Of a stretch of DNA of 33,365 bases, positions 288 to 30,224 are shown piece by piece. Numbering within the stretch: the first letter of the stretch is position 1; each line of letters starts with the position of its first letter. A program made the position numbers and the translations under genes. The notes beneath the pieces are model-generated. The model did no database searches. It saw nothing but the letters and a program-made list of their open reading frames with translations, and was not told the origin of the DNA. This DNA comes from a virus (lineage: Duplodnaviria; Heunggongvirae; Uroviricota; Caudoviricetes): positions 1 to 33,365 of the IMG/VR virus record IMGVR_UViG_2737471753_000001; one strand, written 5' to 3'.

Positions 288-1397
288 TTATTCAGTTTCC
301 GCTATCCAGTCAGGAATTTTTGCTTCAAGCTCAAGCTGCGTGGTAAAACCGCTGTTATCAATGGTGTGCTCGGCCTTTGCAATAATCCAGTCCTGATTGT
401 CGATGTCATTTTTGAAGCCTGTCACCGTGCCATGCATTTCAGGGTAGAGTTCTGCACGTCCACGCGCCAGCGTGATGGAGAATGATGCGGCTCCGCGTTG
501 TAGCTGCTGCCACTTTGCCGCTGCTGCGCGTCTTGCTGCCTGCTCGTTCTGATAAGTTTTGCGTAACACAAACACATTGCCTTCCGCGCCTTCCATATAA
601 TCACCTTCACGGCTGCTGCTTTTCTCCTTTTTGGGTTTTGGCGGTTTGCGGCGTTTCACGCTGACTTTTTTCTTTTTCCCGTAATTAAGATCAAGCCAGT
701 AAGCGCGTACCCCCGTATACGCTTCGCGGTCAGCAATGCGGAACTGATGGCGATCGCCGCTGCTGCGTGTGATGGCGAACGATGGCAACGGCTGGCCCTG
801 TGCGTTCACGCCACCGCCGGGCATGATGAATAACAGATTACCGCTTTTTACCGTGGTGATTGCGCCCAGCATTTCCGCCATGCGCGTAAGGAAGGACATG
901 TCGCTTTCTTCAGTCTGGTCGGCGTGGTCGATTTCGATATCCATCAGCATTTCGCTGATTTGCGGTTTCAGGCCGTACCGATGAGCGATGGCGGATACCA
1001 CACGCTCAACGGTCACATCATGCCATGACACCTCACGTTTAACGTTAAATTCATCCCGAAAATCTGCGCTTCTGGCTGAAACAGTCAGCCTGTCCGGCGG
1101 TCCTTCGTGAGCGATTTCATCAACAATGTAAGTGCCTTTTTCTGTCAGCGGTTCTCCTTTCCAGCCAATGAGAACCGTCAGGCGCGCGCCCCGTGGCGGT
1201 AGCTGCAACTGACCATCCGCATCATCCAGCGTGATGGTGAGCTGGTCCGCCTCAAATCCCCGGTTGTCGGTCAGTGACAGGCTCATCAGGCGCTCTGCCA
1301 CGCCTGACAGCGTTTTACCCTCCGCGAGAATATCAAAATCCGGCATTTTCACGGGGTCTGTGCCCTGACTGAGCAATTGCATGGTGGTGTCGGTCAT
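288..1397 (-). CDS. D: tail protein D (late control gene D family)
   Basis: Track ORF 288..1418 (376 aa) matches P2 gpD in size and sequence character; start placed at the internal ATG at 1397 (MTDTTMQLL...) because it is preceded by a strong SD (AGGGAGGGAAAG) whereas the ATG at 1418 is not. Confidence 0.85.
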   Translation of the reverse strand: MTDTTMQLLSQGTDPVKMPDFDILAEGKTLSGVAERLMSLSLTDNRGFEADQLTITLDDADGQLQLPPRGARLTVLIGWKGEPLTEKGTYIVDEIAHEGPPDRLTVSARSADFRDEFNVKREVSWHDVTVERVVSAIAHRYGLKPQISEMLMDIEIDHADQTEESDMSFLTRMAEMLGAITTVKSGNLLFIMPGGGVNAQGQPLPSFAITRSSGDRHQFRIADREAYTGVRAYWLDLNYGKKKKVSVKRRKPPKPKKEKSSSREGDYMEGAEGNVFVLRKTYQNEQAARRAAAAKWQQLQRGAASFSITLARGRAELYPEMHGTVTGFKNDIDNQDWIIAKAEHTIDNSGFTTQLELEAKIPDWIAETE

Positions 1398-1453
1398 CTT
1401 TCCCTCCCTGTGCGGCATGGTCGCATGTGCGTGCGGAGGGGGTTACTGCTTTT

Positions 1454-1477
1454 TGTTGTCGCCGGGTCGGGAGAACG
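1454..1477. promoter_or_regulatory. candidate Ogr-type late-activator binding site (TGTTGT-N12-AGAACG) in the D/FI divergent region
   Basis: TGTTGTcgccgggtcgggAGAACG about 80-100 bp upstream of the FI ATG; the same TGTTGT-N12-AGAAC architecture recurs at 20463..20486 between O and P; resembles the P2 late-promoter TGT-N12-ACA dyad as recalled (one mismatch, TGT-N12-AGA). Confidence 0.4.
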
Positions 1478-1553
1478 GCGCAGGGGTGAGATTACGCGCG
1501 TGGTGGGTGATGATTGTTGCCGAATCATTTAACGGATACAAGGGGCTGAAGCT

Positions 1554-2738
1554 ATGAGTGAAACTCGTTTTCATGGTGCCCGTGTTACGGAAAATACCGA
1601 CCTGGTAACAGCGATTAACGATGTTGATTCCAGCGTTATCGGTATCGTGGCAACGGCGGATGATGCGGACGCGAAGCTGTTCCCGCTGAACAAGCCCACA
1701 CTGCTGACCCGCGTCAATGACGTGCTGGGAAAATGCGGAACAACGGGGACGCTTTATCGTGCGCTTAAGGCCATCGCAGACCAGGTGAGCACAAAGGTGA
1801 TCGTCGTTCGCGTGGCTGAACACAAAGAAGAAGACGGAAAGACGCAGGATCAACTGGTTATCGGTGGTTCTGAGGATGACGGCAGCTATACGGGGATGTA
1901 TGCGCTGCTTGTTGCAGAGCAGGATGAAAGCATCGGATACCGTCCGCGTATTCTGGCCGCGCCGGAGCTGGACACGGAGGCGGTAACAAAATCCCTGTGC
2001 GTGATTGCGGGTAAACTGCGCGCGTTTGTGTATGCCACATGTCATGGTTGTAACACGATGGCTGAGGCGATTACCTACCGCCAGAAATTCAACGAACGTG
2101 AGGTGATGCTCTTATGGCCTGACTTCATCGCCTACAACCCGAAAAGTGGCAAAAACGAAACGTTCCCCGCGCCTGCTTATGCGTGCGGCCTTCGTGCGTA
2201 CATTGACCATGAGCAGGGCTGGCACAAATCGCTGTCCAACGTTCCGGTTAAAAATGTGCTGGGAATGTCCAGGCATGTGTTCTGGTCGTTGCAGGCCGAA
2301 GACAGTGATGCCAACAGCCTCAATAACAAAGAAATCACGACCATTATTCGTCGCAACGGGTTCCGCTTCTGGGGCAACCGCACACCGGAAACGAACGCCT
2401 ACATCTTTGAGGTGTATACCCGAACCGCACAGGTGCTGGCTGATTCAATTGCGGAAGCGCAGTTTGAAACCATCGACAGTCCACTGACGCCTGCGAACGT
2501 GAAGGATGTTATCAGTGCCATCAGGGCAAAACTGGATTCGCTGGTTACTGCCGGGAAACTGATTGGTGCGGAGTGCTGGTATGACGTGGTGGATAACGGC
2601 ACCACGAATTTACGTCAGGGACGTGTGCGTATTCGCTACAAATATACGCCCGTTCCGCCACTGGAAGACATGGAGCTTTACCAGACGTTTACTGATGAAT
2701 TCTTTGGTCCCGCATTTGCGGTGCTGGGAGGTGCCTGA
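1554..2738 (+). CDS. FI: contractile tail sheath protein
   Basis: 394-aa ORF with RBS AAGGGG at 1540..1545; sequence and size match P2 gpFI (recalled as 396 aa), e.g. conserved ...GWHKSLSNV...GFRFWGNRT...YTPVPPLE... Confidence 0.92.
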   Translation: MSETRFHGARVTENTDLVTAINDVDSSVIGIVATADDADAKLFPLNKPTLLTRVNDVLGKCGTTGTLYRALKAIADQVSTKVIVVRVAEHKEEDGKTQDQLVIGGSEDDGSYTGMYALLVAEQDESIGYRPRILAAPELDTEAVTKSLCVIAGKLRAFVYATCHGCNTMAEAITYRQKFNEREVMLLWPDFIAYNPKSGKNETFPAPAYACGLRAYIDHEQGWHKSLSNVPVKNVLGMSRHVFWSLQAEDSDANSLNNKEITTIIRRNGFRFWGNRTPETNAYIFEVYTRTAQVLADSIAEAQFETIDSPLTPANVKDVISAIRAKLDSLVTAGKLIGAECWYDVVDNGTTNLRQGRVRIRYKYTPVPPLEDMELYQTFTDEFFGPAFAVLGGA

Positions 2739-3250
2739 TGGCTGTACCAAAACATCTTCGCTTTTTTACGTTGTTTGTGGATGGTGAAAACGAAGTGGGT
2801 AAAGTGACATCCGTCACGCCGCCCAAACTGACGCGCAAAACCGACAGCTATCGTGGTGGTGGCATGATGGGGGCGGTAAGTATTGATCTCGGTCTGGACG
2901 ACTCCGCGCTTGATGCGAGTTTTGTTATGGGGGGAGCTGTTCGTGCGCTGTTCCTTAAATATGGCGGCACGATTGACGGCACGCTGCTGCGTTTTGCGGG
3001 TGAATACTACACCGATGCAGAAAGCGATCTGTATGAAATCGAGATGCGCGGACGTGTGACGGAAATTGATATGGGGGAAGCCAAACAGGGCGAAGCCACA
3101 TCACACACTTACGCTGTCAAAAACACCTACTACAAGCTGAGCGTTAACGATCGCCCGCTGTGGGAAATCGACCTGTTGAACCACATCTACCGGAAGGACG
3201 GCAAGGACATTGTGCCTGACCGTATCCGTTCCGCGCTTGGGCTTGGCTGA
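2738..3250 (+). CDS. FII: tail tube protein
   Basis: 170-aa ORF whose ATG overlaps the FI stop (ATGA-type coupling); size and sequence fit P2 gpFII. Confidence 0.9.
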   Translation: MAVPKHLRFFTLFVDGENEVGKVTSVTPPKLTRKTDSYRGGGMMGAVSIDLGLDDSALDASFVMGGAVRALFLKYGGTIDGTLLRFAGEYYTDAESDLYEIEMRGRVTEIDMGEAKQGEATSHTYAVKNTYYKLSVNDRPLWEIDLLNHIYRKDGKDIVPDRIRSALGLG

Positions 3251-3305
3251 TAAGTAATATGCAGGCGGCGCAGTGCGTCGCCTCTGACTGAAAAGGAGAC
3301 AACTG

Positions 3306-3680
3306 ATGAAAGACATCGATACTGAAACCCGGAATAACACCGTGGCGGATGATGTGACGGCAGGTGAGGATATGGCTGTCGAACGTGGCGTAAAACTGAC
3401 CCGACCAATTGAGCGTGGTGGCGAAAAAATCACGTATGTGGAGATCACCGGGGCTATTGAACAGGCTGGATCCCTGCGTGGTCTGTCGCTGTCTGATGTG
3501 CTGAATCTGAAAGCGGATACCATGTTCACGCTGTTGCCTCGCGTGACCTCGCCACGACTGGATGAAGTGATGATTAAAAAAATGTCGTCACGCGATTTTA
3601 TTCAGTTGTGCGCTGTGGCTGTAAATTTTATGAGCGAGCCAGACTCTGGCGCGAAGAGCGTGCAGGAGACGGCGGCGTAA
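3306..3680 (+). CDS. E: tail assembly chaperone E (tape-measure chaperone)
   Basis: 124-aa ORF directly upstream of the tape-measure gene with a long overlapping -1 frame ORF, as in the P2 E/E' arrangement. Confidence 0.8.
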   Translation: MKDIDTETRNNTVADDVTAGEDMAVERGVKLTRPIERGGEKITYVEITGAIEQAGSLRGLSLSDVLNLKADTMFTLLPRVTSPRLDEVMIKKMSSRDFIQLCAVAVNFMSEPDSGAKSVQETAA

Positions 3681-3844
3681 TCACCCTGGTGTGCTTTGAT
3701 CACATCGAAGATCTGGTGGCAGATATCGCCGCCATTTTTAACTGGTCGCCCGCCGAAATCTTCATGATGACGCCCGGCGAAGTGGTTAGCTGGCGTGAGC
3801 GGGCGGCACTTCGCAGCGGGAATGCAGACAATGAAGACTCTTGA
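3306..3844 (+). CDS. E+E' fusion chaperone produced by a predicted programmed -1 ribosomal frameshift
   Basis: The -1 frame is open from 3578 to 3844 and overlaps the T start; an X_XXY_YYZ slippery heptamer A_AAT_TTT lies in the E frame at 3623..3629. Mirrors the conserved chaperone frameshift upstream of tape-measure genes. Confidence 0.5.
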
Positions 3845-6638
3845 TATCCGGGTCGCTTTCAGCGCCGTTGACAGGCTGACCCGACCTGCCGAAAACGCCC
3901 GCCGCCTGATGGGGCAGTTTGGTGACTCCATCCAGCGAACGCAGGGGGCGATCAAAAATCTCGAGCGTCAGGCGCGATCATTTGAGCGCGCCCGCGACGC
4001 TGTCAGTAAAGCGGATGCGGGCATCGTGAAAGCACGACGCCAGCTTAACGCCCTTAATCAGTTACAACGCACGGGTACAGTGCTCAGCGAAAAACAACAA
4101 AAGCTGATGCAGCAGTTAAGCACCCGGCTTGAACGCCTGAATGAATCGCGTACACGGGAAATTCAGAAAATGCGGGAGCTTGGCGGAGAGCTGAAACGCC
4201 ACGGCATTTCCCTGACAGGCAGCGATAACACCATCCAGCAGGCCATCAGACGCACCGAACAGTACAACAACCAGCTTGAACGCGAACGGCAGGCGCTTGC
4301 GCGTGTAACGCGGGCGCGTGAGCGGTATTCGCGCGCGCAGGAAACAGCGGGAAAACTGAAAACAGGTGGTGCGCTGGCAATTGGTGCGGCAGCGGCGGGC
4401 GGCTATGCTGCCGGGCGTTTTTTGCAGCCTGCGATCGGGTTCGGGAAAGAGATGTCCCGCGTTCAGGCGCTGACGCGAATCGACCAGAACAGCCCACAGT
4501 TTAAGGCGCTGCGTGAGCAGGCGTTAAAACTTGGCTCTGAAACGCAGTTCACCGCTGGAGATGCCGCCAGTGGACAGGCATTTCTTGCAATGGCTGGCTT
4601 CACACCACAGGCCATTCAGGCTGCGCTTCCCGGTGTGCTGAGCATGGCAACGGCTGGCGGTATGGATCTCGGCGAGACGGCGGATATTGGCTCAAACATC
4701 CTGACGCAGTTCGGCCTTTCTGCCGACCAGATGGACCGGGTCGGTGACACGCTCACCGCAGCGTTTACCCGTACCAACACTGACCTTCGCGCACTGGGCG
4801 AAACCATGAAATATGCAGGTCCGGTGGCGGGCAAGCTGGGAATATCGCTGGAGCAGGCCGCAGCGATGGCGGGCGTGCTGGCGAATATGGGTATCAGGGG
4901 AAGTGATGCCGGGACGGCAATGCGTGCCAGCCTGGCTCGTCTGGCATCACCGCCAAAGGCGGCAGCAGAGGCGCTGAAAGAGCTTGGTGTGGCAGTCTCT
5001 GACGCGAACGGCAAAATGCGCCCGATGGAGGATGTGCTGGCCGATCTTTATAAAGCCACCCGCAAATACGGGGAAGTTGACCGGGTATCGTTCTTTAAGG
5101 ACATTGCCGGAGAAGAGGCTTTCACATCGTTTATGGCGCTCGTTGATGCAGCGGGTGACGGTTCCTTACCTAAACTGAGAAAAGAACTTGAAGGCGCACG
5201 CGGTGAGGCTGAACGCACAGCAAAGGTTATGGCCAACAACCTTGATGGCGATCTGAAATCACTCGGCAGTGCATGGGAAGGGTTGCGCATCCGCATTGCA
5301 GATCTGATTGACGGTCCGCTGCGTTCTGTCACGCAGTGGCTCACGCGGGTGGTATCAAGGGTGACGGCGCTGGCGCAGGCCCATCCGGCACTGACGCGCC
5401 AGCTACTGATAGCAGGCGGTGCGTTGCTGGCAATGACTGCAACGATTGGCTCGTTGTCGCTGGTTATTGGCGTGCTTCACGGGAAACTGGCCACGTTACG
5501 TCTTGGTTTTTCTCTCCTGACCGGATCAATGAATGTCGTCAGGGTGCTGCCAGCACTATGGGGAATGGTAACAGGTTCCATCTCGTTGCTGGGTGGCGCT
5601 ATCGGGGCGCTGTTCAGTCCGGTCGGATTGATTGTTGCCGCGTTTGTGGCTGCGGCGGTTCTCATCTGGAAATACTGGGAACCCATCAAGGCGTTTTATG
5701 CCGGGGTGTTCAGTGGGATTATGGAACGGCTGGCTCCGTTGCGCGAAACCTTTGAACGGTTTGGTCCTGTTTTTGATGTCGTGCGCGATGGGATTATTCA
5801 GCTCTTTAACTGGTTTAAATCGCTGCTGTCACCGATGGAGTCCAGCAAGGAAACGCTGGATAAATGCACCAGTGCTGGCGAGATATTCGGTAACGTTCTT
5901 GGTGGCGCGCTACAGCTTGTTCTGACGCCTGCAAAAATGCTGCTGGATACGCTGGCGTGGATACTTGAAAAACTCGGTGTGCTTCCGGATGAAGCGGAAA
6001 GGGCGAGAAAGAAAATCGAAGACGCACAGCGTGCGGCCATTCTTCAGGACAAGGTTGCCTTGCTTCAGGGGGACCTGGCGAAAATCAATCCGCCGAAGCC
6101 TGTAGAAAATGGCAATGGCACCGGAGGTGATAACCCCAAAGACAATAAACCGCTCACAGACAGCAATACTGGTACGCTGCGCAGACTCAGCAAAATTGCT
6201 GATAACACAGGTAAGCTGGTTGATGAGACGAAAAAACGCATTGGCCCCGGCGATATTGTCTTTAAGAACCTGCCCCGCGCACTTGCTGTTCGTGGGGAGT
6301 GGCAGGAGCGGAAGATTGCGCAGGTCAGTAAGCCTGCCCCCGCAATTAATATCACACCCGTGGTCCCGGCTCCGCTGCCTCCGGCGCTGGTCCCTGTTGT
6401 TGCGGCCAGCTCCCGCCCGGTGGCGGAGGCCATACGATCTCCAGTGGCATCAGTTCCTGTAACTTCCCGTAACCGGGAGCCTGTTGCCTCAGGATTTGGC
6501 GGTGAAATTCATGTTCATCTGCATAACGTCGTTACACAGAATCCCCGCGAACTGGCGAAACTGGTCGGTGAAATGGTCAGGGCAGAAATGGAACGGCGCG
6601 CCCGTGCCGGGCGTGGCAGTTTTTACGATAAAGATTGA
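3831..6638 (+). CDS. T: tail tape measure protein
   Basis: Long ORF (track 3795..6638, 947 aa) with coiled-coil-like N-terminal half, Gly/Ala-rich hydrophobic segments and a long C-terminal region; start placed at ATG 3831 (MKTLDIR...) with GGGA about 10 nt upstream; ATG 3822 is an alternative. Confidence 0.9.
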   Translation: MKTLDIRVAFSAVDRLTRPAENARRLMGQFGDSIQRTQGAIKNLERQARSFERARDAVSKADAGIVKARRQLNALNQLQRTGTVLSEKQQKLMQQLSTRLERLNESRTREIQKMRELGGELKRHGISLTGSDNTIQQAIRRTEQYNNQLERERQALARVTRARERYSRAQETAGKLKTGGALAIGAAAAGGYAAGRFLQPAIGFGKEMSRVQALTRIDQNSPQFKALREQALKLGSETQFTAGDAASGQAFLAMAGFTPQAIQAALPGVLSMATAGGMDLGETADIGSNILTQFGLSADQMDRVGDTLTAAFTRTNTDLRALGETMKYAGPVAGKLGISLEQAAAMAGVLANMGIRGSDAGTAMRASLARLASPPKAAAEALKELGVAVSDANGKMRPMEDVLADLYKATRKYGEVDRVSFFKDIAGEEAFTSFMALVDAAGDGSLPKLRKELEGARGEAERTAKVMANNLDGDLKSLGSAWEGLRIRIADLIDGPLRSVTQWLTRVVSRVTALAQAHPALTRQLLIAGGALLAMTATIGSLSLVIGVLHGKLATLRLGFSLLTGSMNVVRVLPALWGMVTGSISLLGGAIGALFSPVGLIVAAFVAAAVLIWKYWEPIKAFYAGVFSGIMERLAPLRETFERFGPVFDVVRDGIIQLFNWFKSLLSPMESSKETLDKCTSAGEIFGNVLGGALQLVLTPAKMLLDTLAWILEKLGVLPDEAERARKKIEDAQRAAILQDKVALLQGDLAKINPPKPVENGNGTGGDNPKDNKPLTDSNTGTLRRLSKIADNTGKLVDETKKRIGPGDIVFKNLPRALAVRGEWQERKIAQVSKPAPAINITPVVPAPLPPALVPVVAASSRPVAEAIRSPVASVPVTSRNREPVASGFGGEIHVHLHNVVTQNPRELAKLVGEMVRAEMERRARAGRGSFYDKD

Positions 6639-6650
6639 GGAGTCATGGCT

Positions 6651-7139
6651 ATGATGATGATCTACGGCATGTTTGTTTTTGAGCTGCGCACGCTGCCGCA
6701 TCAGCAGTTACAGCAAAACAAAAGCTGGCGGCATGTGAAAAATGAACGCGTTAACCGTTCAGCAAGCTGGCAGTATATCGGTGCAGGTGATGATCGCATC
6801 GTTCTTTCTGGTGTGCTTTATCCTGAAATTACAGGTGGCGAAGTGTCGCTGTCGCTGCTGACCACGCAGGCGTATACAGGACGACCCTGGCCTTTGATTG
6901 ATGGCGTCGGGCAGATTTACGGCATGTATGTCCTGACCGGAACGAATACGACCCGTTCCGAGTTTGATCGCTACGGTAAGGCGAAAAAGATAGAATTTTC
7001 ACTGACCCTTGAACGCTGTGATGAGGATTTGCGGGAGCGCCTGCAATCCTCATCGTTCAGTGATATGCTGTCCGGCTTCAAAGATAAGGTGACATCATCT
7101 CTTAACAGCGCGGCCAGTTCAGTTAAAGGGCTGTTCTGA
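6651..7139 (+). CDS. U: tail protein U
   Basis: Track ORF 6645..7139 (164 aa) resembles P2 gpU; SD GAGGAG at 6636..6641 is best spaced for the ATG at 6651 (MMMIYGMFVF...). Confidence 0.85.
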   Translation: MMMIYGMFVFELRTLPHQQLQQNKSWRHVKNERVNRSASWQYIGAGDDRIVLSGVLYPEITGGEVSLSLLTTQAYTGRPWPLIDGVGQIYGMYVLTGTNTTRSEFDRYGKAKKIEFSLTLERCDEDLRERLQSSSFSDMLSGFKDKVTSSLNSAASSVKGLF

Positions 7140-7150
7140 TTTAACACAAA

Positions 7151-7186
7151 AACCGCTAATGGTCAGATTAGCGGTTATTTTGTTTT
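7151..7186. terminator. bidirectional intrinsic terminator between convergent U and invertase genes
   Basis: Perfect 10-bp stem AACCGCTAAT / ATTAGCGGTT with 6-nt loop GGTCAG, preceded by an A-run and followed by ATTTTGTTTT. Confidence 0.75.
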
Positions 7187-7762
7187 CTGACTCTTCTCTA
7201 TTGTTCCGCTTGATTCTCCTGCGGGGTGGTAACGATAAATCGTCGATGTACCAATGCCGTAAATTATTGCCAGTTGTTTTCTGTCGTGACCGTTTTTAAT
7301 CAGCCTTGCTATTTGCTCATGCTGTTCTTTTGTCAGCTTCGGTCGACGTCCGCCTGTGCGCCCCCGTGCGCGCGCTGCCGCCAGTCCGGCCAGTGTACGT
7401 TCAACAATTAATTCACGTTCCATTTCAGCCAGGGCACCCATCACGTGGAAGAAAAAACGCCCCATTGGAGAAGATGTATCTATGCTGTCGGTCAGACTGC
7501 GAAAATTAATCCCTCGCTCCCGTAGTTCTCCGACGAGAGAAATCAGATGTTTCATGCTTCGCCCAAGGCGATCCAGTTTCCAGACAACCAGCGTGTCACC
7601 TTTTTGAAGCCGCTTTAAAGCGCGTTTTAATCCCGGTCGGTCTGTCTTTGTCCCGCTTAATTTATCTTCAAATATTTGTTCACATCCTGCACAAACAAGA
7701 GCGTTTCGTTGCAGGTCTGTATTCTGGTCATTTGTTGATACCCTTACATAACCAATCAGCAC
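7175..7762 (-). CDS. pin: serine recombinase, DNA invertase of the Pin/Gin/Hin/Cin family
   Basis: N-terminus LIGYVRVSTNDQNTDLQRNAL... (catalytic Ser region), resolvase core ...WKLDRLGRS...SPMGRFFFHVMGALAEMERELI... and a C-terminal HTH; start placed at the GTG giving (M)LIGYVRV, as in Gin/Pin; track ORF extends to a TTG at 7780. Confidence 0.9.
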   Translation of the reverse strand: MLIGYVRVSTNDQNTDLQRNALVCAGCEQIFEDKLSGTKTDRPGLKRALKRLQKGDTLVVWKLDRLGRSMKHLISLVGELRERGINFRSLTDSIDTSSPMGRFFFHVMGALAEMERELIVERTLAGLAAARARGRTGGRRPKLTKEQHEQIARLIKNGHDRKQLAIIYGIGTSTIYRYHPAGESSGTIEKSQKTK

Positions 7763-7816
7763 ACTGAATCTCCCGTCCAAAAGCGCAAATCATGCCATGC
7801 AGGCCGGAAACGGCCA

Positions 7817-7842
7817 TTATCTAAAACCTCGGTTTACAGGAA
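7817..7842. other. left inversion crossover site (gix/hix-like, 26 bp)
   Basis: TTATCTAAAACCTCGGTTTACAGGAA; inverted-repeat partner of 10847..10872; a 24-bp perfect inverted repeat CCTCGGTTTACAGGAAACGGTAAA spans 7827..7850 and 10839..10862; matches the Gin/Hin crossover-site pattern as recalled. Confidence 0.85.
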
Positions 7843-8784
7843 ACGGTAAATCAGGCTTCTGGCGCATTACAGAAAAACCAGAACGGCGCAGATATTCCGG
7901 GGAAAGATACCTTCACCAAAATATTGGGGCCTGCCGCGCATATAGCGCATGGCTGAATATTGGTGGCGATAGTCAGGTCTGGACAACCGCACAATTCATT
8001 TCGTGGCTGGAGAGTCAGGGGCATTTAACCATCCTTACTGGATGTGCAAAGGCTCATGGCTTATGCAAATAATAAGGTCATTACAGATACAGGTTGCGGA
8101 AATATTTGTCTTGCAGGTGCTGTGGTGGAAGTTATTGGCACCCGCGGCGCAATGACCATACGCGTTACCACGCCGAGCACGTCCAGCGGTGGCGGAATCA
8201 CTAACGCTCAATTCACTTATATTAATCATGGTGATGCTTACGCTCCTGGCTGGCGACGAGACTACAACACGAAAAACCAGCAGCCTGCATTTGCTTTAGG
8301 GCAAACAGGACGCAGGGTCGCAAATGATAAAGCTGTTGGCTGGAACTGGAATAGCGGCGTTTATGATGCAGATATCAGTGGCGCATCGACATTAATCCTC
8401 CACTTTAATATGAATGCGGGGAGTTGCCCTGCTGTACAGTTCCGCGTGAATTACAGAAATGGCGGTATCTTTTATCGTTCAGCGCGTGATGGTTATGGCT
8501 TTGAAGCTAACTGGTCAGAGTTTTACACCACAACACGCAAACCCTCTGCGGGAGATGTTGGTGCATATACGCAGGCAGAATGTAACTCAAGTTTATTACA
8601 GGTATTCGCCTTGGCGGTCTGTCATCTGTTCAGACATGGAATGGTCCTGGCTGGTCTGACAGGTCAGGTTATGTCGTTACTGGTTCAGTTAACGGAAACC
8701 GTGATGAATTAATTGATACAACTCAGGCAAGGCCAATTCAGTATTGCATTAATGGAACGTGGTATAACGCGGGAGTATTTAATT
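7843..8784 (+). pseudogene. alternative tail-fibre C-terminal (receptor-binding) cassette, currently not fused to H, apparently interrupted by frameshifts
   Basis: Reading out from the left crossover site in the H frame gives fibre-like sequence that stops after about 42 codons; the protein-like reading continues through three further frames (track ORFs 7797..8072, 8044..8712, then a frame ending ...[17 protein letters not shown]...), with shifts at A- and G-runs. Confidence 0.45.
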
Positions 8785-9234
8785 ATGATGCACTTAAAAA
8801 ATATTACTGCTGGCAACCCTAAAACAAAAGAGCAATACCAGCTAACAAAGCAATTTAACATCAAATGGCTTTATTCAGATGATGGAAAAAACTGGTATGA
8901 GGAACAAAAGAATTTCCAGCCAGACACTTTGAAAATGGTCTATGACCATAACGGCGTTATTATTTGTATTGAAAAGGATGTTTCAGCAATTAATCCGGAA
9001 GGCGCAAGCGTCGTTGAATTACCTGATATTACAGCAAATCGCCGGGCTGATATTTCGGGTAAATGGATGTTCAAAGATGGCGTAGTGATAAAGCGAACTT
9101 ATACCGAGGAGGAACAGAGGCAGCAGGCAGAGAATGAAAAGCAAAGCCTGTTGCAACTTGTCAGGGATAAAACCCAGCTATGGGACTCACAGCTACGGCT
9201 GGGTATCATTTCCGACGAGAATAAACAAAATTAA
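8785..9234 (+). CDS. tail fibre assembly protein (Tfa; Mu U / P2 G family), plus-strand copy
   Basis: [22 protein letters not shown]...[41 protein letters not shown]...; RBS GGGA upstream of ATG 8785. The conserved Tfa C-terminus (...[28 protein letters not shown]) continues in another frame to about 9316, implying a 1-nt shift near 9225. Confidence 0.7.
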
Positions 9235-9328
9235 CCGAGTGGATGCTCTATGCGCAGAAGGTCGAATCCACAGACACCTCCAGCCTGCCAGTAACGTTTC
9301 CAGAACAACCAGAATGAAACAAGGCCCG

Positions 9329-9850
9329 CTATCGGGCCTTAATTTTATTCAGGCTTTTGTGGCCATTCAGGATTTGCCGTATCCACACGGCTGACCAGAA
9401 CACTATAGCGTTCCATGACTCCAGTCGTGCGCGTTCCTCATCCGTCGCCATATTCAGCCTGACAGCGCGTTCCAGTGGCTGAATAACGTTTTCTGCTTCG
9501 GAAAGTAACGCGGCCTTTTGTGATTCGGCCTGTTGTTGTTGCTCGTCTGCCGTATAAATCCGTTTAACCACAGCTCCGTCCTTAAACATCCACTTACCGG
9601 AATCATCAGCACGACGATTAGCTGTAATATCAGGAACCTCAACGACGCTATAACCTTCAGGGTTAAGCGTGGAGCATCTTTGTGATGGCGACAATAATAT
9701 TATTTGCATCGTAAACAATCTTTATGTGTCTGGCTGAAAGTTTTTCACTTCCTCATACCAGTTTTTTCCGTCTTCGGACCATAACCAGATAACATCAAAT
9801 TCTTTGTTAGCTGATATTGTTCTTTTGTTTTGGATTTCCAGACTTAATAT
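9329..9850 (-). pseudogene. P2 G-like tail fibre assembly gene remnant (minus-strand copy) with N-terminal frameshifts
   Basis: Intact C-terminal part in track ORF 9329..9718 (...[34 protein letters not shown]...); N-terminal part [13 protein letters not shown]... is readable only by switching frame at least three times. Confidence 0.55.
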
Positions 9851-10846
9851 TTTTTAAATGCTGCATAAATTACACCTGTGCGACGTTATACCATGTGCCA
9901 TTGATGTATTTTTGTATTGGTCTGAATACTGCCGGATCATCGCCATCAACTTCACCGACAATGCCAAGCCCGTAATTGCATGACCTGATTTCTCATACAT
10001 CACGCCTTTTTGCATAGTCTGAACAACACGTGTGCCAAGTCGGACATCTCTCACATAACGTGAATCAAATTGCCATAGTTGCCGGGAATAACTTGCGAGC
10101 CGCAAAGCCAGTTCCCGTTATTATCCATGTACGCCTGACCATCGGTACCATTGGCTGTCCTTGAGTTATTAATCATGTAGATGCCAAATTGCTTATTCCC
10201 CAGTCCACCAATCATAAATTTGCGATCAGCGTGGTCCTGACGAAGTAATGCCTGCGCACCATCGGTGGATACCGCATTGCGTCCCCAAATAACATTCTGG
10301 TCACGCATATGAATCCACATGCCGGTACTACTGTTAATTGCAAAACGGTTTGCAATATATCCCTGTAACATCAAGACCATGCCCATGCTTATCCGACCAG
10401 TTCTAAGGTTAATCGTAAAGGGGCGTAATGGCCCTATATCACCATTTTCTCCCTCATTCTCTCGTGTAGGGATGATATGCAGGCATTCTTCAGAACGGCG
10501 AAAAATGGCACCAAAAGATGAATTAAATATCCTCAGTGCATTGACTGTCGATATTTTTACTTCACTGCTGAAAAGGCTTTAACAAGACAGACAAAGCATC
10601 CCATTTAAGATTCATCAGGTCTTTTGTTGTGGTGCTTTGTTTGCTTCTCCATTTGAAATATTCATTGCCGTTGTCGCCTGTTTCAAACCACATGTATGAA
10701 TCAGTATCGCTATCGGCATCATTTTAAAACCAATCTTTGCCCAGTCAGTATTTCGAATCCAGGCAAGGATTGAGTCGTTTTCAAATTAAGCCCACCGGAC
10801 AAGGTATCGCCATTTTTTTGCACGGCGTACCAGCCCTGTTTACCGT
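9851..10846 (-). pseudogene. P2 H-like tail-fibre C-terminal cassette (currently joined to H) degraded by frameshifts and stops
   Basis: Fibre-like sequence is scattered over three frames (GNAVQKNGDTLSGGL..., ENDSILAWIRNTDWAKIGFK..., ...FDSRYVRDVRLGTRVVQ..., ...GEVDGDD..RPIQKYINGTWYNVAQV*), with a stretch around 10390..10560 closed in all frames. In the current orientation H terminates 21 codons past the crossover site. Confidence 0.5.
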
Positions 10847-12136
10847 TTCCTGTAAACCGAGGTATTCGATAACAGCGGCAACGGTCGATTTCGCAAGAAT
10901 ATCCCGCCCGACTTTTGTCAGGGTTGCCAGGCTGGCGACATCATTCCCCGTAAAATACGGAAACTTGTCTGCCGCAGTAGCAAGCCCGGCCAGCGCCGTC
11001 AGGGTGGCATCTTTCGGTTGCTTACCCGCAAGCGCTTTAGTCATGGTGGTCGCAAAATTCGGGTCGTTTCCCAGCGCCGCCGCTAACTCGTTCAGCGTAT
11101 TCAGTGCGTCAGGTGACGAATCTACAAGGGCGGCAATCGCAGCCATAACGAAAGCCGTGCTTGCGATTTGGGTATTATTCGTTCCCTGTCGCGCAGTTGG
11201 CGTTGTTGGCGTTCCGGTCAACGCAGGACTGTTTAAGGGCGCTTTCTTGTTCGTTTCATCCATTACCGCCTTAACCGCTTTCGATGTCGCGGCCAGTGTT
11301 TCAGACGTGCTGTTGGTGGCACTACTGAGCTGGACTATCCCTTTTTGTGCCGTCGTGGCGTCCTGAGCGGTATATTTTGCGTTAGCAAGGTCATACGCGG
11401 CCTTTACTGCTTTCGGCGTTGCAGCCTGCGTTTCAGACGTGCTGTTGGTGGCGCTACTGAGCTGGACAAGGCCTTTTCGTGCCGTCGTGGCGTCCTGAGC
11501 GGTATATTTTCCGTTAGCTAGGTCATACGCGGCCTTAACCGCTTTCGGCGTTGCAGCCTGCGTTTCAGACACGCTGTTAGTGGCGCTACTGAGTTGAACA
11601 AAGCCTTTTGCGGTCAGCGAGGCGTCCGGGTGACGTCGTGACTGTTCATGCTCTTTCAGTTTGTCATCCACGTAATCCACTGTGGCCATCACCATGGTGT
11701 TATCCACGGTAAGCGCCACGGTGGCCGTGCTGGATACGGTCAGAATGGTGCGAAATGTTTGTGCACGTCCGGACCCTTCGGCAACGGTTGGTTTGTAACT
11801 TTCGGCAGTATTGCCCACCGCGATTAAATCGCCGTGCTCATCAAATACACCAATTTCCCGGATCCAGAATCCGCCCGTTTCAGGAGGAATAACCAGCTCC
11901 GCAATAATGCGGTTCTGATGTGTTGCGTCCAGGATGACGCGATTAACAGTGTGTCGCCACACCTCATGCACCAGACGGGTCTGCTTACTGTCTGGTGTGG
12001 GCAACGTGCCGCCACCGTCGCCCACGGCCATATGAGTCAGGCGGACAGGCTTACCATCTGGCGCGGCTGCCTGAGCTAATTTTTTGGCACCTGTATCGGT
12101 GATAACGGTTTTAAATTTTCGTGTTGTGGTACTCAT
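10781..12136 (-). CDS. H: tail fibre protein H, constant N-terminal region plus a short out-of-module tail
   Basis: 451-aa ORF with conserved fibre N-terminus and an internal threefold 44-aa repeat; positioned after I as in P2; the crossover site lies 22 codons before its stop. Confidence 0.85.
   Translation of the reverse strand: MSTTTRKFKTVITDTGAKKLAQAAAPDGKPVRLTHMAVGDGGGTLPTPDSKQTRLVHEVWRHTVNRVILDATHQNRIIAELVIPPETGGFWIREIGVFDEHGDLIAVGNTAESYKPTVAEGSGRAQTFRTILTVSSTATVALTVDNTMVMATVDYVDDKLKEHEQSRRHPDASLTAKGFVQLSSATNSVSETQAATPKAVKAAYDLANGKYTAQDATTARKGLVQLSSATNSTSETQAATPKAVKAAYDLANAKYTAQDATTAQKGIVQLSSATNSTSETLAATSKAVKAVMDETNKKAPLNSPALTGTPTTPTARQGTNNTQIASTAFVMAAIAALVDSSPDALNTLNELAAALGNDPNFATTMTKALAGKQPKDATLTALAGLATAADKFPYFTGNDVASLATLTKVGRDILAKSTVAAVIEYLGLQETVNRAGTPCKKMAIPCPVGLI
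10847..10872. other. right inversion crossover site (gix/hix-like, 26 bp) inside the H reading frame
   Basis: TTCCTGTAAACCGAGGTATTCGATAA; inverted partner of 7817..7842; encodes ...VIEYLGLQET... in the H frame, analogous to the crossover site inside Mu gene S. Confidence 0.85.
11269..11640. repeat. tandem direct repeat, 132-bp unit, about 2.8 copies, inside H
   Basis: Units begin at 11269, 11401 and 11533 and are nearly identical; they encode a repeated 44-aa fibre shaft segment (...QLSSATNSTSETQAATPKAVKAAYDLAN.KYTAQDATTA.KG.V...). Confidence 0.85.
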
Positions 12137-12138
12137 GC

Positions 12139-12669
12139 TTAATCGTCCGGATAAATGGTAATAACTTCACCGTCATAAGTTGCCGCCGCTGCAAAAATAT
12201 CCCCCGGAATTTCCTGAATGATATTCAGCCCTGTCATGTGGCGGCTGACCGGACGGGCATCAGCAATCAACCGCTCCATTTCCAGATACATTTCCTCCGT
12301 CACGCCACTGTCCAGTGTGCCGACTTCAACGGTAAATGTTCCCGGTTCTCCGCCGAACTCCCACCACTCAGACACGCGAATGAGGTATCCCAGCGGCTCA
12401 ATGGCCCTGCGCAGTGCGCTGATGGTCCCTTTGTGTCGGTGTATCAGCCATGCATCACGAATCACCTGTCGTTTTGTCTCTTCCGGCCAGTTGCGATCCC
12501 AACGGTCAACGGAAAATGCCCAGGCGAGATAAGGCAGCAGGTGCACCGGGCAGGTGTCCGGCGACCACAGCGTGTTGAGGTCTACCGGGATGTCTGTAAT
12601 GCGCGTTCCGACAGCTTCGGCACAACGCATGAAACTGCTGGCTGATGGTGGTAACAGTGAATTACTCAT
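12139..12669 (-). CDS. I: baseplate assembly protein I
   Basis: Track ORF 12139..12702; start placed at ATG 12669 (MSNSLLPP...), which overlaps the J stop and gives 176 aa, the size recalled for P2 gpI. Confidence 0.85.
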   Translation of the reverse strand: MSNSLLPPSASSFMRCAEAVGTRITDIPVDLNTLWSPDTCPVHLLPYLAWAFSVDRWDRNWPEETKRQVIRDAWLIHRHKGTISALRRAIEPLGYLIRVSEWWEFGGEPGTFTVEVGTLDSGVTEEMYLEMERLIADARPVSRHMTGLNIIQEIPGDIFAAAATYDGEVITIYPDD

Positions 12670-13558
12670 TGCGCCCACCTTCGCTGATGGTGAACGACTC
12701 ACAGCGCGCCGCCTGTATGTCGCTGATGGCCATATTCTGTGTGGGTTCGATTATCTCCACGCGTTGCACACCGTGCACATGCAGTGCGGCAGCAATGGCG
12801 GACAACGCCACGTCCTGACCGATAAGCCCCTGCTCAGCCAGCCACTTCCTGAACGACGATTCAGCCGCCGCCAGAATAGGTTCGGATTCCGGGCCGGGGT
12901 AAAAGTACAGTTTTGCATTCAGCCGCCATGTCACGATTCTGGCGCTCTGTACAGTAAGGCGGTCGGCCACCGGGCGGGTATCCTCTGCATTCAGAACGGC
13001 GCGAACGGTATTAAGCAACGCCTCCGTTGCTGTGCCGTCGCCTTCAGTGGACAGGATGGAAACCGTCACATTTGCCGGAGACGGACTGATAGCCCGCGCA
13101 TCACGCACCAGACCGCTGGCGCTGCGGGCAAAATACTCGTATGCACCTGACGGGCCAGCAACACTCAGGCCATCGTACGCCCGCTGCGCCCGCAGTCTCA
13201 GCGAGGTGTCACTTTCCATCACTGCGTCGGTGGTATCCGTTGCCGGAGTGATGGTCAGGCGCTTTGTGTTCATATTGCCCGCGAGGTTGTCCAGGTCTGT
13301 CCCGGCGCTGTGGCTTAACATGCAGGCGCGTGCCCCCTCGTTAACCCGCTGGCGTAACAGCATTTCACGAAACGACATGGTTTGAGCGATAACGTTAAGG
13401 GGTTCCGATTCCAGCTCCAGCGCGGCGGAAACGGCTTCACGCTGTTCGGCGGGATAAGCCGCAATCATCATGGCCTTTGTGTCAGCCAGAATTGCCTCAA
13501 AGTCAGGCTCCGCGATGATGGCGGGGTCCGGTAACTGTGAAAGGTCAACGGCGGGCAT
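12662..13558 (-). CDS. J: baseplate assembly protein J
   Basis: 298-aa ORF; size and position between W and I as in P2; tightly coupled to its neighbours. Confidence 0.88.
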   Translation of the reverse strand: MPAVDLSQLPDPAIIAEPDFEAILADTKAMMIAAYPAEQREAVSAALELESEPLNVIAQTMSFREMLLRQRVNEGARACMLSHSAGTDLDNLAGNMNTKRLTITPATDTTDAVMESDTSLRLRAQRAYDGLSVAGPSGAYEYFARSASGLVRDARAISPSPANVTVSILSTEGDGTATEALLNTVRAVLNAEDTRPVADRLTVQSARIVTWRLNAKLYFYPGPESEPILAAAESSFRKWLAEQGLIGQDVALSAIAAALHVHGVQRVEIIEPTQNMAISDIQAARCESFTISEGGRNE

Positions 13559-13561
13559 GAT

Positions 13562-13912
13562 TTACTCCCTTAGCGTGATGGTTAATTCAACATTCTGCAT
13601 GGTCTGCATGACAGTGCCCGACAGCGTCACCCCGGCGCGGCCTCCCGCTTTCCAGACAACGTCGATGGCATCCAGGGCAATGCGGGGTTCCCATCGTGTC
13701 AGCGCAATCACGGCAGCACTCATGCATTGCAGACGCGTGGTGTTATTCATGGGTTCGTCAATCAAATCAGGCACAAGGCTGCCATATTCCCGTCGCATAA
13801 CCCGGCTTGCCAGCGGGGTGGTCAGGATATCCCTGACTGACTGTTTCAGGTGCTCCATATCGTTCAGGTTTCCCGTCCCGTCCGGATTCATTCCTGTGTA
13901 GCGGGTTGTCAC
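13562..13912 (-). CDS. W: baseplate wedge protein W
   Basis: 116-aa ORF; size and position match P2 gpW. Confidence 0.85.
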   Translation of the reverse strand: MTTRYTGMNPDGTGNLNDMEHLKQSVRDILTTPLASRVMRREYGSLVPDLIDEPMNNTTRLQCMSAAVIALTRWEPRIALDAIDVVWKAGGRAGVTLSGTVMQTMQNVELTITLRE

Positions 13913-29253: not shown

Positions 29254-30224
29254 TAAAAAGCCTCCAGATCGCCAAACGTGCCCGCCGCAACCATCGCGTT
29301 GTAAGTCGCATCACCCATCACGGCGCCACAATCAGGGCAACCGCCGCCGTAACGCCCGCAGCAGTCGCAGACAGGCAGCACGCCGATCACTTCTTTGGCC
29401 TTCTGTCGGTTGTTTTTGTCAGTGCTGACGGAACGTTGCACGCTGATTTTGTGCATCTTGAAGGGCTGATAAATCGCGCGGGTGGCTTCGGTGTCGCTGT
29501 TGGAAATGACGACCTTCACGCCATGCTTACGGTTAACTTCCAGCAGTGCCTGGACTAACTGGCGGTGGTTGTCTTCCGTGAATGGTTCGGTGTGGTATTG
29601 GGTAAAATCGGCTGTTTTGCTTTCAGGCAGGTAAGGCGGATCGCAGTAAACGAGAACATCGCCACCCGTGACGACCTGTAGAGAACGCTGGAACGGCGCG
29701 CACAGAAATATTGCCTTTGTATCGTTGGCCTTTTCGGCAAACAGGCGGATTTCATTTTCAGGAAAGTAGACGCTCTTATACTTGCCAAACGGCACGTTAA
29801 AGCCAGTCTTCCGGCTGTATCGGCATAAGCCGTTATAACCGTGGCGATTCAGATACAGGAATTGAGCAGCGCGCATAATGCACGCCATTTCAGCGCCATA
29901 ACGCAACCCACCGCTTTTGACCGTACCCACCTGCTTATTGAACGCGGCGCGGACTTCGTTGTATCCCTGCGGGCTGTTCTTACTGTTGAACAGTTCACGG
30001 GCCGCATCGATCACTAAGTCCGGGTAACGGGTGACTTCCCGATACAGGTTAATAAGATCCGGGTTGATATCAGCCAGCACATAGCGGCGGTATTCAGTCG
30101 CCAGAAATACCGATGCGCCGCCTACGAACGGTTCGATCAGGCAGTCGGCTTTAGGAAGATGCGGCAGCAGGTCAGGGAGGACACGGGTTTTTCCCCCTGC
30201 CCATTTGATGAACGGGCGGATCAT
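29253..30224 (-). CDS. dam: DNA adenine methyltransferase (Dam-like, N6A) with Cys-rich C-terminal extension
   Basis: Start placed at MIRPFIKWAGGK (SD GGAG upstream); DPPY motif (...VYCDPPYLPE...); C-terminal tail ...PVCDCCGRYGGGCPDCG... resembles a zinc ribbon. Confidence 0.8.
   Translation of the reverse strand: MIRPFIKWAGGKTRVLPDLLPHLPKADCLIEPFVGGASVFLATEYRRYVLADINPDLINLYREVTRYPDLVIDAARELFNSKNSPQGYNEVRAAFNKQVGTVKSGGLRYGAEMACIMRAAQFLYLNRHGYNGLCRYSRKTGFNVPFGKYKSVYFPENEIRLFAEKANDTKAIFLCAPFQRSLQVVTGGDVLVYCDPPYLPESKTADFTQYHTEPFTEDNHRQLVQALLEVNRKHGVKVVISNSDTEATRAIYQPFKMHKISVQRSVSTDKNNRQKAKEVIGVLPVCDCCGRYGGGCPDCGAVMGDATYNAMVAAGTFGDLEAF

Follow-up and report, generated by a model that had tools for sequence, protein, structure and literature searches.

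The prophage studied here is a tailed virus (Caudoviricetes) represented by the 33,365-nucleotide IMG/VR record IMGVR_UViG_2737471753_000001 (the window, in which positions are counted below unless another record is named). It carries a 3.0-kb invertible segment with two alternative C-terminal cassettes of a tail fibre gene, each followed by a gene for a tail fibre assembly chaperone (tfa). In the deposited sequence, all four of these genes are broken by frameshifts, and 23 single bases are missing from the segment. We conclude, with a probability of about 0.93–0.95, that the 23 frameshifts are consensus artefacts, namely one-base homopolymer undercalls in a PacBio RS II/HGAP4 consensus, and that the genes themselves are almost certainly intact. 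This conclusion is reached because the errors are confined to the segment, are of one kind only, and do not occur in independently obtained sequences of this prophage. The cause was probably a mixture of the two orientations of the segment, which is likely because the errors stop at the crossover sites, the segment occurs both ways, and other assemblies carry private sets of errors.

The window corresponds to positions 307103–340467 of the chromosome of Escherichia coli 81009 (NZ_CP021179.1), to which window positions 7100–11000 are 100% identical. It comprises a complete P88-like (P2-family) prophage inserted between fieF and cpxP. Strain 81009 (PCM-2857) is a urine isolate of E. coli sequence type 131 (ST131), C1-M27. 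Its genome was assembled de novo with HGAP4 from PacBio RS II reads; Illumina reads were aligned by BWA/GATK, with no explicit correction step described (PMC5823992). The frameshift cluster is a property of this one deposited assembly.

Single-base gaps between two crossover sites

The segment and its flanks are laid out as follows, with each contraction of a homopolymer run denoted by the position after which a base is missing.

7175..7762, minus strand: DNA invertase gene (Gin/Cin/Pin/Hin-type serine recombinase); intact, 195 amino acids
7817..7842, plus strand: left 26-bp crossover site, TTATCTAAAACCTCGGTTTACAGGAA; an arm of inverted repeat I3
7843..8782, plus strand: silent alternative fibre C-terminal cassette, Sv'-like; 5 contractions (after 7917, 8017, 8057, 8590, and 8770)
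8785..9317, plus strand: tail fibre assembly chaperone gene tfa', U'-like; 1 contraction (after 9226)
9345..9866, minus strand: tail fibre assembly chaperone gene tfa, U-like; 6 contractions (after 9412, 9673, 9681, 9724, 9796, and 9827)
9870..10846, minus strand: fibre C-terminal cassette, Sv-like, fused to the constant part in the window orientation; 10 contractions (after 9968, 10066, 10353, 10360, 10381, 10574, 10586, 10721, 10782, and 10827)
10847..10872, minus strand: right 26-bp crossover site, reverse complement TTATCGAATACCTCGGTTTACAGGAA; inverted relative to the left site
10873..12136, minus strand: constant N-terminal part of the tail fibre gene (Sc); outside the invertible segment, uninterrupted

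The remaining contraction, after 9342, lies at the boundary between the tfa stop codon and the spacer. All 23 gaps thus fall between 7917 and 10827. The first is 88 nt inside the central dinucleotide of the left crossover site, and the last is 32 nt inside that of the right site. Under a uniform model, the chance of all 23 falling in the 2,974-nt segment is ~8e-25.

In the window as deposited, short open reading frames (ORFs) take the place of each of the four expected genes, and RefSeq tags four features within 7843–10846 of the 81009 sequence as ‘frameshifted’ pseudogenes. The initial annotation, made from the window alone, had reported such frame breaks, and they are borne out. Its three examples each correspond to a contracted run. 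The break placed near 7925 is an A5 run read as A4 at 7918–7921, the one near 9225 in the plus-strand tfa is an A5 run read as A4 at 9227–9230, and the minus-strand one near 10825 is a TT reduced to a single T at 10828 (on the minus strand, AA reduced to A). The stretch described there as closed in all frames is the stretch of 254 nt (10574–10827) in the minus-strand cassette that contains five gaps.

Alignment with relatives showed that every one of the gaps (23/23) shortens a homopolymer run by one base and that there are no compensating insertions. Full-length relatives have 2,996 bases, as compared with 2,974 in the window segment. The true run lengths at the gaps are 2 (n=6), 3 (n=4), 4 (n=7), and 5 (n=6). 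The share of runs contracted climbs with length, from 1.3% of 2-base runs to 4% of 3-base, 21% of 4-base, and 46% of 5-base runs; the 1,535 single bases in the segment have all been kept. Among runs of 6–7 bases, which are few, 0 of 5 are contracted.

Intact copies of the same prophage

Other carriers of the prophage were found by exact look-up of the window's tape-measure protein in draft assemblies. Several carriers of the identical protein have it at the same chromosomal site, beside tpiA-cdh-sbp-pfkA-fieF, and their fibre module is intact. In the window orientation, this module encodes a fibre of 758 amino acids and tfa products of 175 and 177 amino acids, and in the flipped orientation a fibre of 744 amino acids plus a silent cassette of 320 amino acids. 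Two of these sequences, an ENA metagenome contig (L019) and a JGI metagenome contig (L021), were aligned to 81009 over 22.8 kb, after their segments had been flipped computationally. Apart from 2 substitutions (at 10643 and 12512), each differs from 81009 by exactly the 23 gaps, all of them bases missing in 81009. The segment accounts for 23 deletions, no insertions, and 1 substitution, while the other 19.8 kb has no indels and 1 substitution. The same 23 bases are present in a third carrier (L023), which has the window's own orientation.

The complete genome of strain KA0011 (L009, NZ_AP029163.1) also carries this prophage. Over its 30,181 flanking nucleotides, 6 substitutions and no indels separate it from the window, in agreement with the earlier claim that the breaks are confined to the invertible cassettes and tfa genes. 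The cassette retained in KA0011 is flipped and open over 334 codons. Over the stretch that it shares with the window (the cassette and part of tfa), KA0011 has 13 single bases that the window lacks, along with 1 interior substitution. The 23 gaps are all absent from KA0011, L019, L021, and L023, and the constant fibre part Sc has no indels relative to KA0011, L019, or L021.

KA0011 has undergone a loss of its own. An IS26 element (L009 9065–9769) and an adjacent deletion have taken away half of the segment together with one of its crossover sites, and have cost the constant fibre gene its 3' end (the region L009 7828–10954 corresponds to window 7817–11015). The fibre gene of KA0011 is truncated and its switch is locked in the flipped state. 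This is a real module loss, unlike the false ‘decay’ in 81009.

Filling only the 23 bases restores one open frame per gene in all four genes (4/4), with no in-frame stop left. The repaired fibre, consisting of Sc and the repaired cassette, has 758 amino acids; it is built purely by run lengthening and has an exact match among public proteins on 4 contigs. The silent cassette, with 5 bases filled, becomes a single 320-codon frame from the crossover site to its stop and has a gp37_C Pfam match. It matches the C-terminus of the intact fibre of E. coli E110019 in the alternative orientation at 319 of 321 aligned positions, and its 5 missing bases are present in L019, L021, and L023. Repaired Tfa' (177 amino acids; Caudo_TAP, 6.4e-37) occurs exactly on 635 public contigs, and one source names it a tail fibre assembly protein of phage D108. 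Repaired Tfa (175 amino acids; Caudo_TAP, 5.3e-38) is identical at 175/175 positions to the protein of E110019 and of O145 strains and occurs exactly on 603 contigs. The broken products, a 451-amino acid fibre and a 149-amino acid Tfa', are each found on 1 public contig, the 81009 chromosome.

Origin of the errors

In the switch, the serine invertase flips the 3.0-kb segment between the two 26-bp crossover sites. Each flip joins the constant fibre N-terminus to one of the two C-terminal receptor-binding cassettes, each followed by its own tfa. In the mechanism that we propose for the errors, the sequenced culture of 81009 would have contained both orientations, and reads from the opposite orientation would have spoiled the pile-up over just the stretch that the crossover sites enclose. 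Consensus calling would then have failed where long reads constrain it least, in homopolymer length.

The errors have the character of long-read artefacts: they are exclusively run-length-dependent homopolymer miscalls, they are confined to the segment, and they come from an error-prone long-read source. Residual errors in PacBio consensus sequences are undercalled homopolymers. Both orientations of the segment are found in nature. Among carriers of the identical tape-measure protein, the segment is flipped in L016, L019, and L021 and unflipped in L023 and 81009. In EC958, another ST131 strain, ~50% of the PacBio reads over prophage Phi1 were flipped, and discrepancies between platforms were ascribed to homopolymeric tracts (PMC4134206). 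Balanced mixtures of orientations have been documented to cause dense clusters of polishing mistakes (PMC9980784).

Errors of this type recur in four O145:H28 assemblies of one prophage, RM8843-C1, RM8988-C1, RM8995-C1, and RM12275-C1 (loci L004–L007; segment at locus positions ~4001–6996). The segment in these assemblies has 9, 7, 7, and 1 homopolymer deletions, with a different set in each, and some of the deletions occur at the same runs as the window's. The flanks (4 x 8,000 nt) are essentially identical, with 1 single-base deletion in total. The segment of RM8995-C1 is flipped relative to the others. RefSeq annotates differing ‘frameshifted’ tail fibre genes in each of the four assemblies.

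An ‘extrachromosomal’ record of E110019 (L010, NZ_CP035755.1, 25,421 bp, linear) consists of the chromosomal prophage region with the fibre segment flipped. It includes the chromosomal genes flk and an arabinose transporter, and has frameshifts toward its ends. The record is not a replicon; it seems to be a contig produced spuriously for the alternative orientation, as in EC958.

The 81009 chromosome has a second invertible fibre segment, located by synteny with EC958, in a Phi4-like lambdoid prophage beside trpA (L013, NZ_CP021179.1 3222000–3271000; segment at 8600–13600 of that locus). Its crossover sites are near-identical to the window's, and its own invertase is truncated. The segment is in the orientation opposite to that of the EC958 reference. 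The window's invertase could flip this segment in trans.

Several observations weigh against the explanation by mixed orientations. The Phi4-like segment is free of frameshifts in the same assembly, and the E110019 chromosome and its alternative-orientation contig show no gaps between them within the segment. Illumina reads existed for 81009, yet the errors stayed in the deposited sequence. For 81009 itself, both the mixture and its tie to the errors are inferred. As the Phi4-like segment is clean, invertibility alone does not produce errors, and a real mixture in the culture is needed; with its own invertase truncated, this segment may simply not have been mixed. The agreement between the two E110019 sequences is consistent with polishing having been clean after the assembler set the orientations apart, and is no test of the 81009 case.

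The best-surviving alternative, though a very unlikely one, is that the artefact had nothing to do with inversion and that uncorrected long-read errors came from a repeated segment, through cross- or multi-mapping, or from low local coverage. The 81009 chromosome does have a second matching place, the Phi4-like copy, and repeats are known to leave residual errors (PMC8235852). That copy is just 70–81% identical to the window within the segment, however, and reaches 95% only outside the crossover sites, where errors are absent. The limits of the errors coincide with the crossover sites and not with the edges of sequence similarity. Cross-mapping to this paralogue was rejected on these grounds, the copy being too diverged and itself clean.

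Slightly less probable still is real decay, in which the module truly gained 23 frame-breaking deletions and the prophage is fibre-less or domesticated. The deposited sequence is indeed broken in all four genes, and true module loss occurs in the lineage, as seen in KA0011 with its IS26 insertion, deletion, and truncated fibre gene. The one-sided tally of 23 deletions in 3 kb argues against decay, as do the lack of any deletion common to another carrier of the same prophage and the position of most contractions in runs of 2–4 bases. Replication slippage favors long runs, yields both gains and losses, and would not halt at crossover sites. Genuine pseudogenes would show lesions reproduced within the same lineage, which were not found in KA0011, L019, L021, or L023, and would accumulate substitutions, in-frame stops, and both insertions and deletions, a pattern likewise not found in the segment.

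Of the two explanations in the initial annotation, that of a genuinely decaying module therefore fails, since independent assemblies have all 23 bases, repair leaves no stops, and the repaired proteins match public ones exactly. That of consensus errors from mixed-orientation reads is supported by the PacBio/HGAP4 source, the restriction to run contractions, the crossover-site boundaries, the private error sets in other assemblies, and the occurrence of both orientations.

It is more doubtful again than decay that the contractions are real in the 81009 stock and reflect some unrecognized process that deletes single bases from short runs between crossover sites; if true, this would mean, for example, error-prone repair coupled to repeated inversion. 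Hardly credible is the idea that the frames are functional as given, by programmed frameshifting or homopolymer phase variation, for which nothing speaks beyond the location of the breaks in homopolymers: 23 separate shifts would be needed, many in window runs of 1–3 bases, the homologues in P88, Mu, D108, and P7 have single long ORFs rather than the same broken frames, and intact homologues differ from the window by just the 23 gaps.

The fibre switch, its neighbors, and known systems

By every feature tested, the element is, as judged from its sequence, a Gin/Cin-type fibre switch, and there is nothing new in it. The adjacent invertase has the YVRVST catalytic-serine motif and matches Resolvase (PF00239, 1.5e-50) and the helix-turn-helix family HTH_7 (PF02796, 1.1e-13). 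The same protein (WP_000905060.1) is annotated alike in 81009, E110019, the O145 strains, and KA0011. In Gin and Hin systems, a Fis-dependent recombinational enhancer lies within the 5' part of the invertase gene. The crossover sites form an inverted pair, and their core has just two matches in the whole window, as against 0.05 expected by chance. Both sites match those tabulated for prophage Phi4 of EC958, and the right site is identical to the Phi4 5' site (PMC4134206). A constant fibre N-terminus lies outside the segment, which contains two opposed cassette–tfa pairs; this layout emerges in the window only after the 23 bases are filled, and is intact in P88 and in loci L015–L023. Both orientations occur. 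A Min-type multi-site shufflon, in which the frame breaks would be cassette junctions, was considered and rejected, as there are just two crossover sites in the window. The sequence evidence indicates that the host-range switch of the prophage is almost certainly normal and functional.

The constant part Sc has Pfam matches to Phage_tail_fib and to three Phage_fiber_2 repeats. The latter are encoded by three tandem 132-nt repeats at 11268–11663 (100%, 89%, and 61% identical). Their copy number varies, the fibre having 758 amino acids here and 714, one unit fewer, in RM12275-C1 and L020.

Elsewhere in the prophage, the tail block from the sheath gene to gpU (288–7139, plus strand) runs opposite to its direction in the canonical P2 order, and gene D and ogr are on the minus strand, opposite to this block. 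A rearrangement private to the window or a misassembly was considered and rejected, because P88 and >1,000 E. coli genomes share the order; on this shared gene order, the inversion is evidently a feature of the lineage. Gene D (288–1397, minus strand) is given in RefSeq for 81009 as a 267-amino acid protein plus a small partial ORF. A lesion was rejected here, as the 369-codon frame is open and KA0011 has a full-length annotation; the short gpD in 81009 is an inconsistency of annotation. The DNA adenine methylase gene (~29445–30224, minus strand) is annotated as incomplete, with its C-terminus missing, in both 81009 and KA0011, and there is no indel difference between the two in this region. 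This truncation, common to both strains, is probably real, unlike the fibre frameshifts.

The result carries little biological weight, as the element is an ordinary Mu/P1-type fibre switch and nothing suggests a fibre-less prophage. Its significance lies rather in database hygiene. RefSeq holds four false ‘frameshifted’ pseudogenes and a truncated 451-amino acid ‘tail fiber protein’ for 81009, and several O145 assemblies have similar false frameshifts in the same segment. Errors of this kind would mislead anyone who uses such complete long-read genomes to infer pseudogene load, host range, or the decay of a prophage. Where homopolymer deletions cluster within limits set by crossover sites, they can themselves mark an actively inverting segment.

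Among isolated phages, Escherichia phage P88 (Peduoviridae, Xuanwuvirus P88; KP063541) comes closest, with 96.1% nucleotide identity over window 7101–12200. P88 shares the window's gene order across the whole tail region. From gene D (minus strand), this order runs through the block from sheath to gpU (plus) and the invertase (minus) to the silent cassette and its tfa (plus), and then to the other tfa and the complete fibre gene (minus). Unlike the window, P88 has four intact fibre-module genes; all 23 bases are there, and no base of the window is missing from it. One cassette of P88 also has a real in-frame difference of 18 nt.

More widely, the G segment of Mu and D108 (Gin) and the C segment of P7 have 91–95% DNA identity to the window segment and invertase. 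The G segment of Mu/D108 and the C segment of P1/P7 (Cin) have the S-U/U'-S' layout seen in the window. In contrast to these phages, the window has its module in a P2-family prophage, joined to a P2-type fibre N-terminus, and its deposited sequence is broken by consensus errors.

Two precedents exist for the assembly problem. Like 81009, EC958 (Forde et al. 2014, PMC4134206) belongs to the ST131 clone and has the same 26-bp crossover sequences, in Phi4, and a culture of mixed orientation disturbed its PacBio assembly. In that case, however, the assembler put the alternative orientations into contigs of their own and the region was curated by the authors, whereas the deposited 81009 chromosome kept its 23 undercalls. 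The second precedent is a fim switch at close to 50:50 (Wick et al. 2023, PMC9980784), where, as in 81009, small errors cluster densely in a long-read assembly but only within an invertible element. The fim case involved Oxford Nanopore Technologies reads and a 314-bp switch; in 81009, PacBio RS II reads and a 3-kb coding segment were involved, and the errors gave rise to false pseudogenes.

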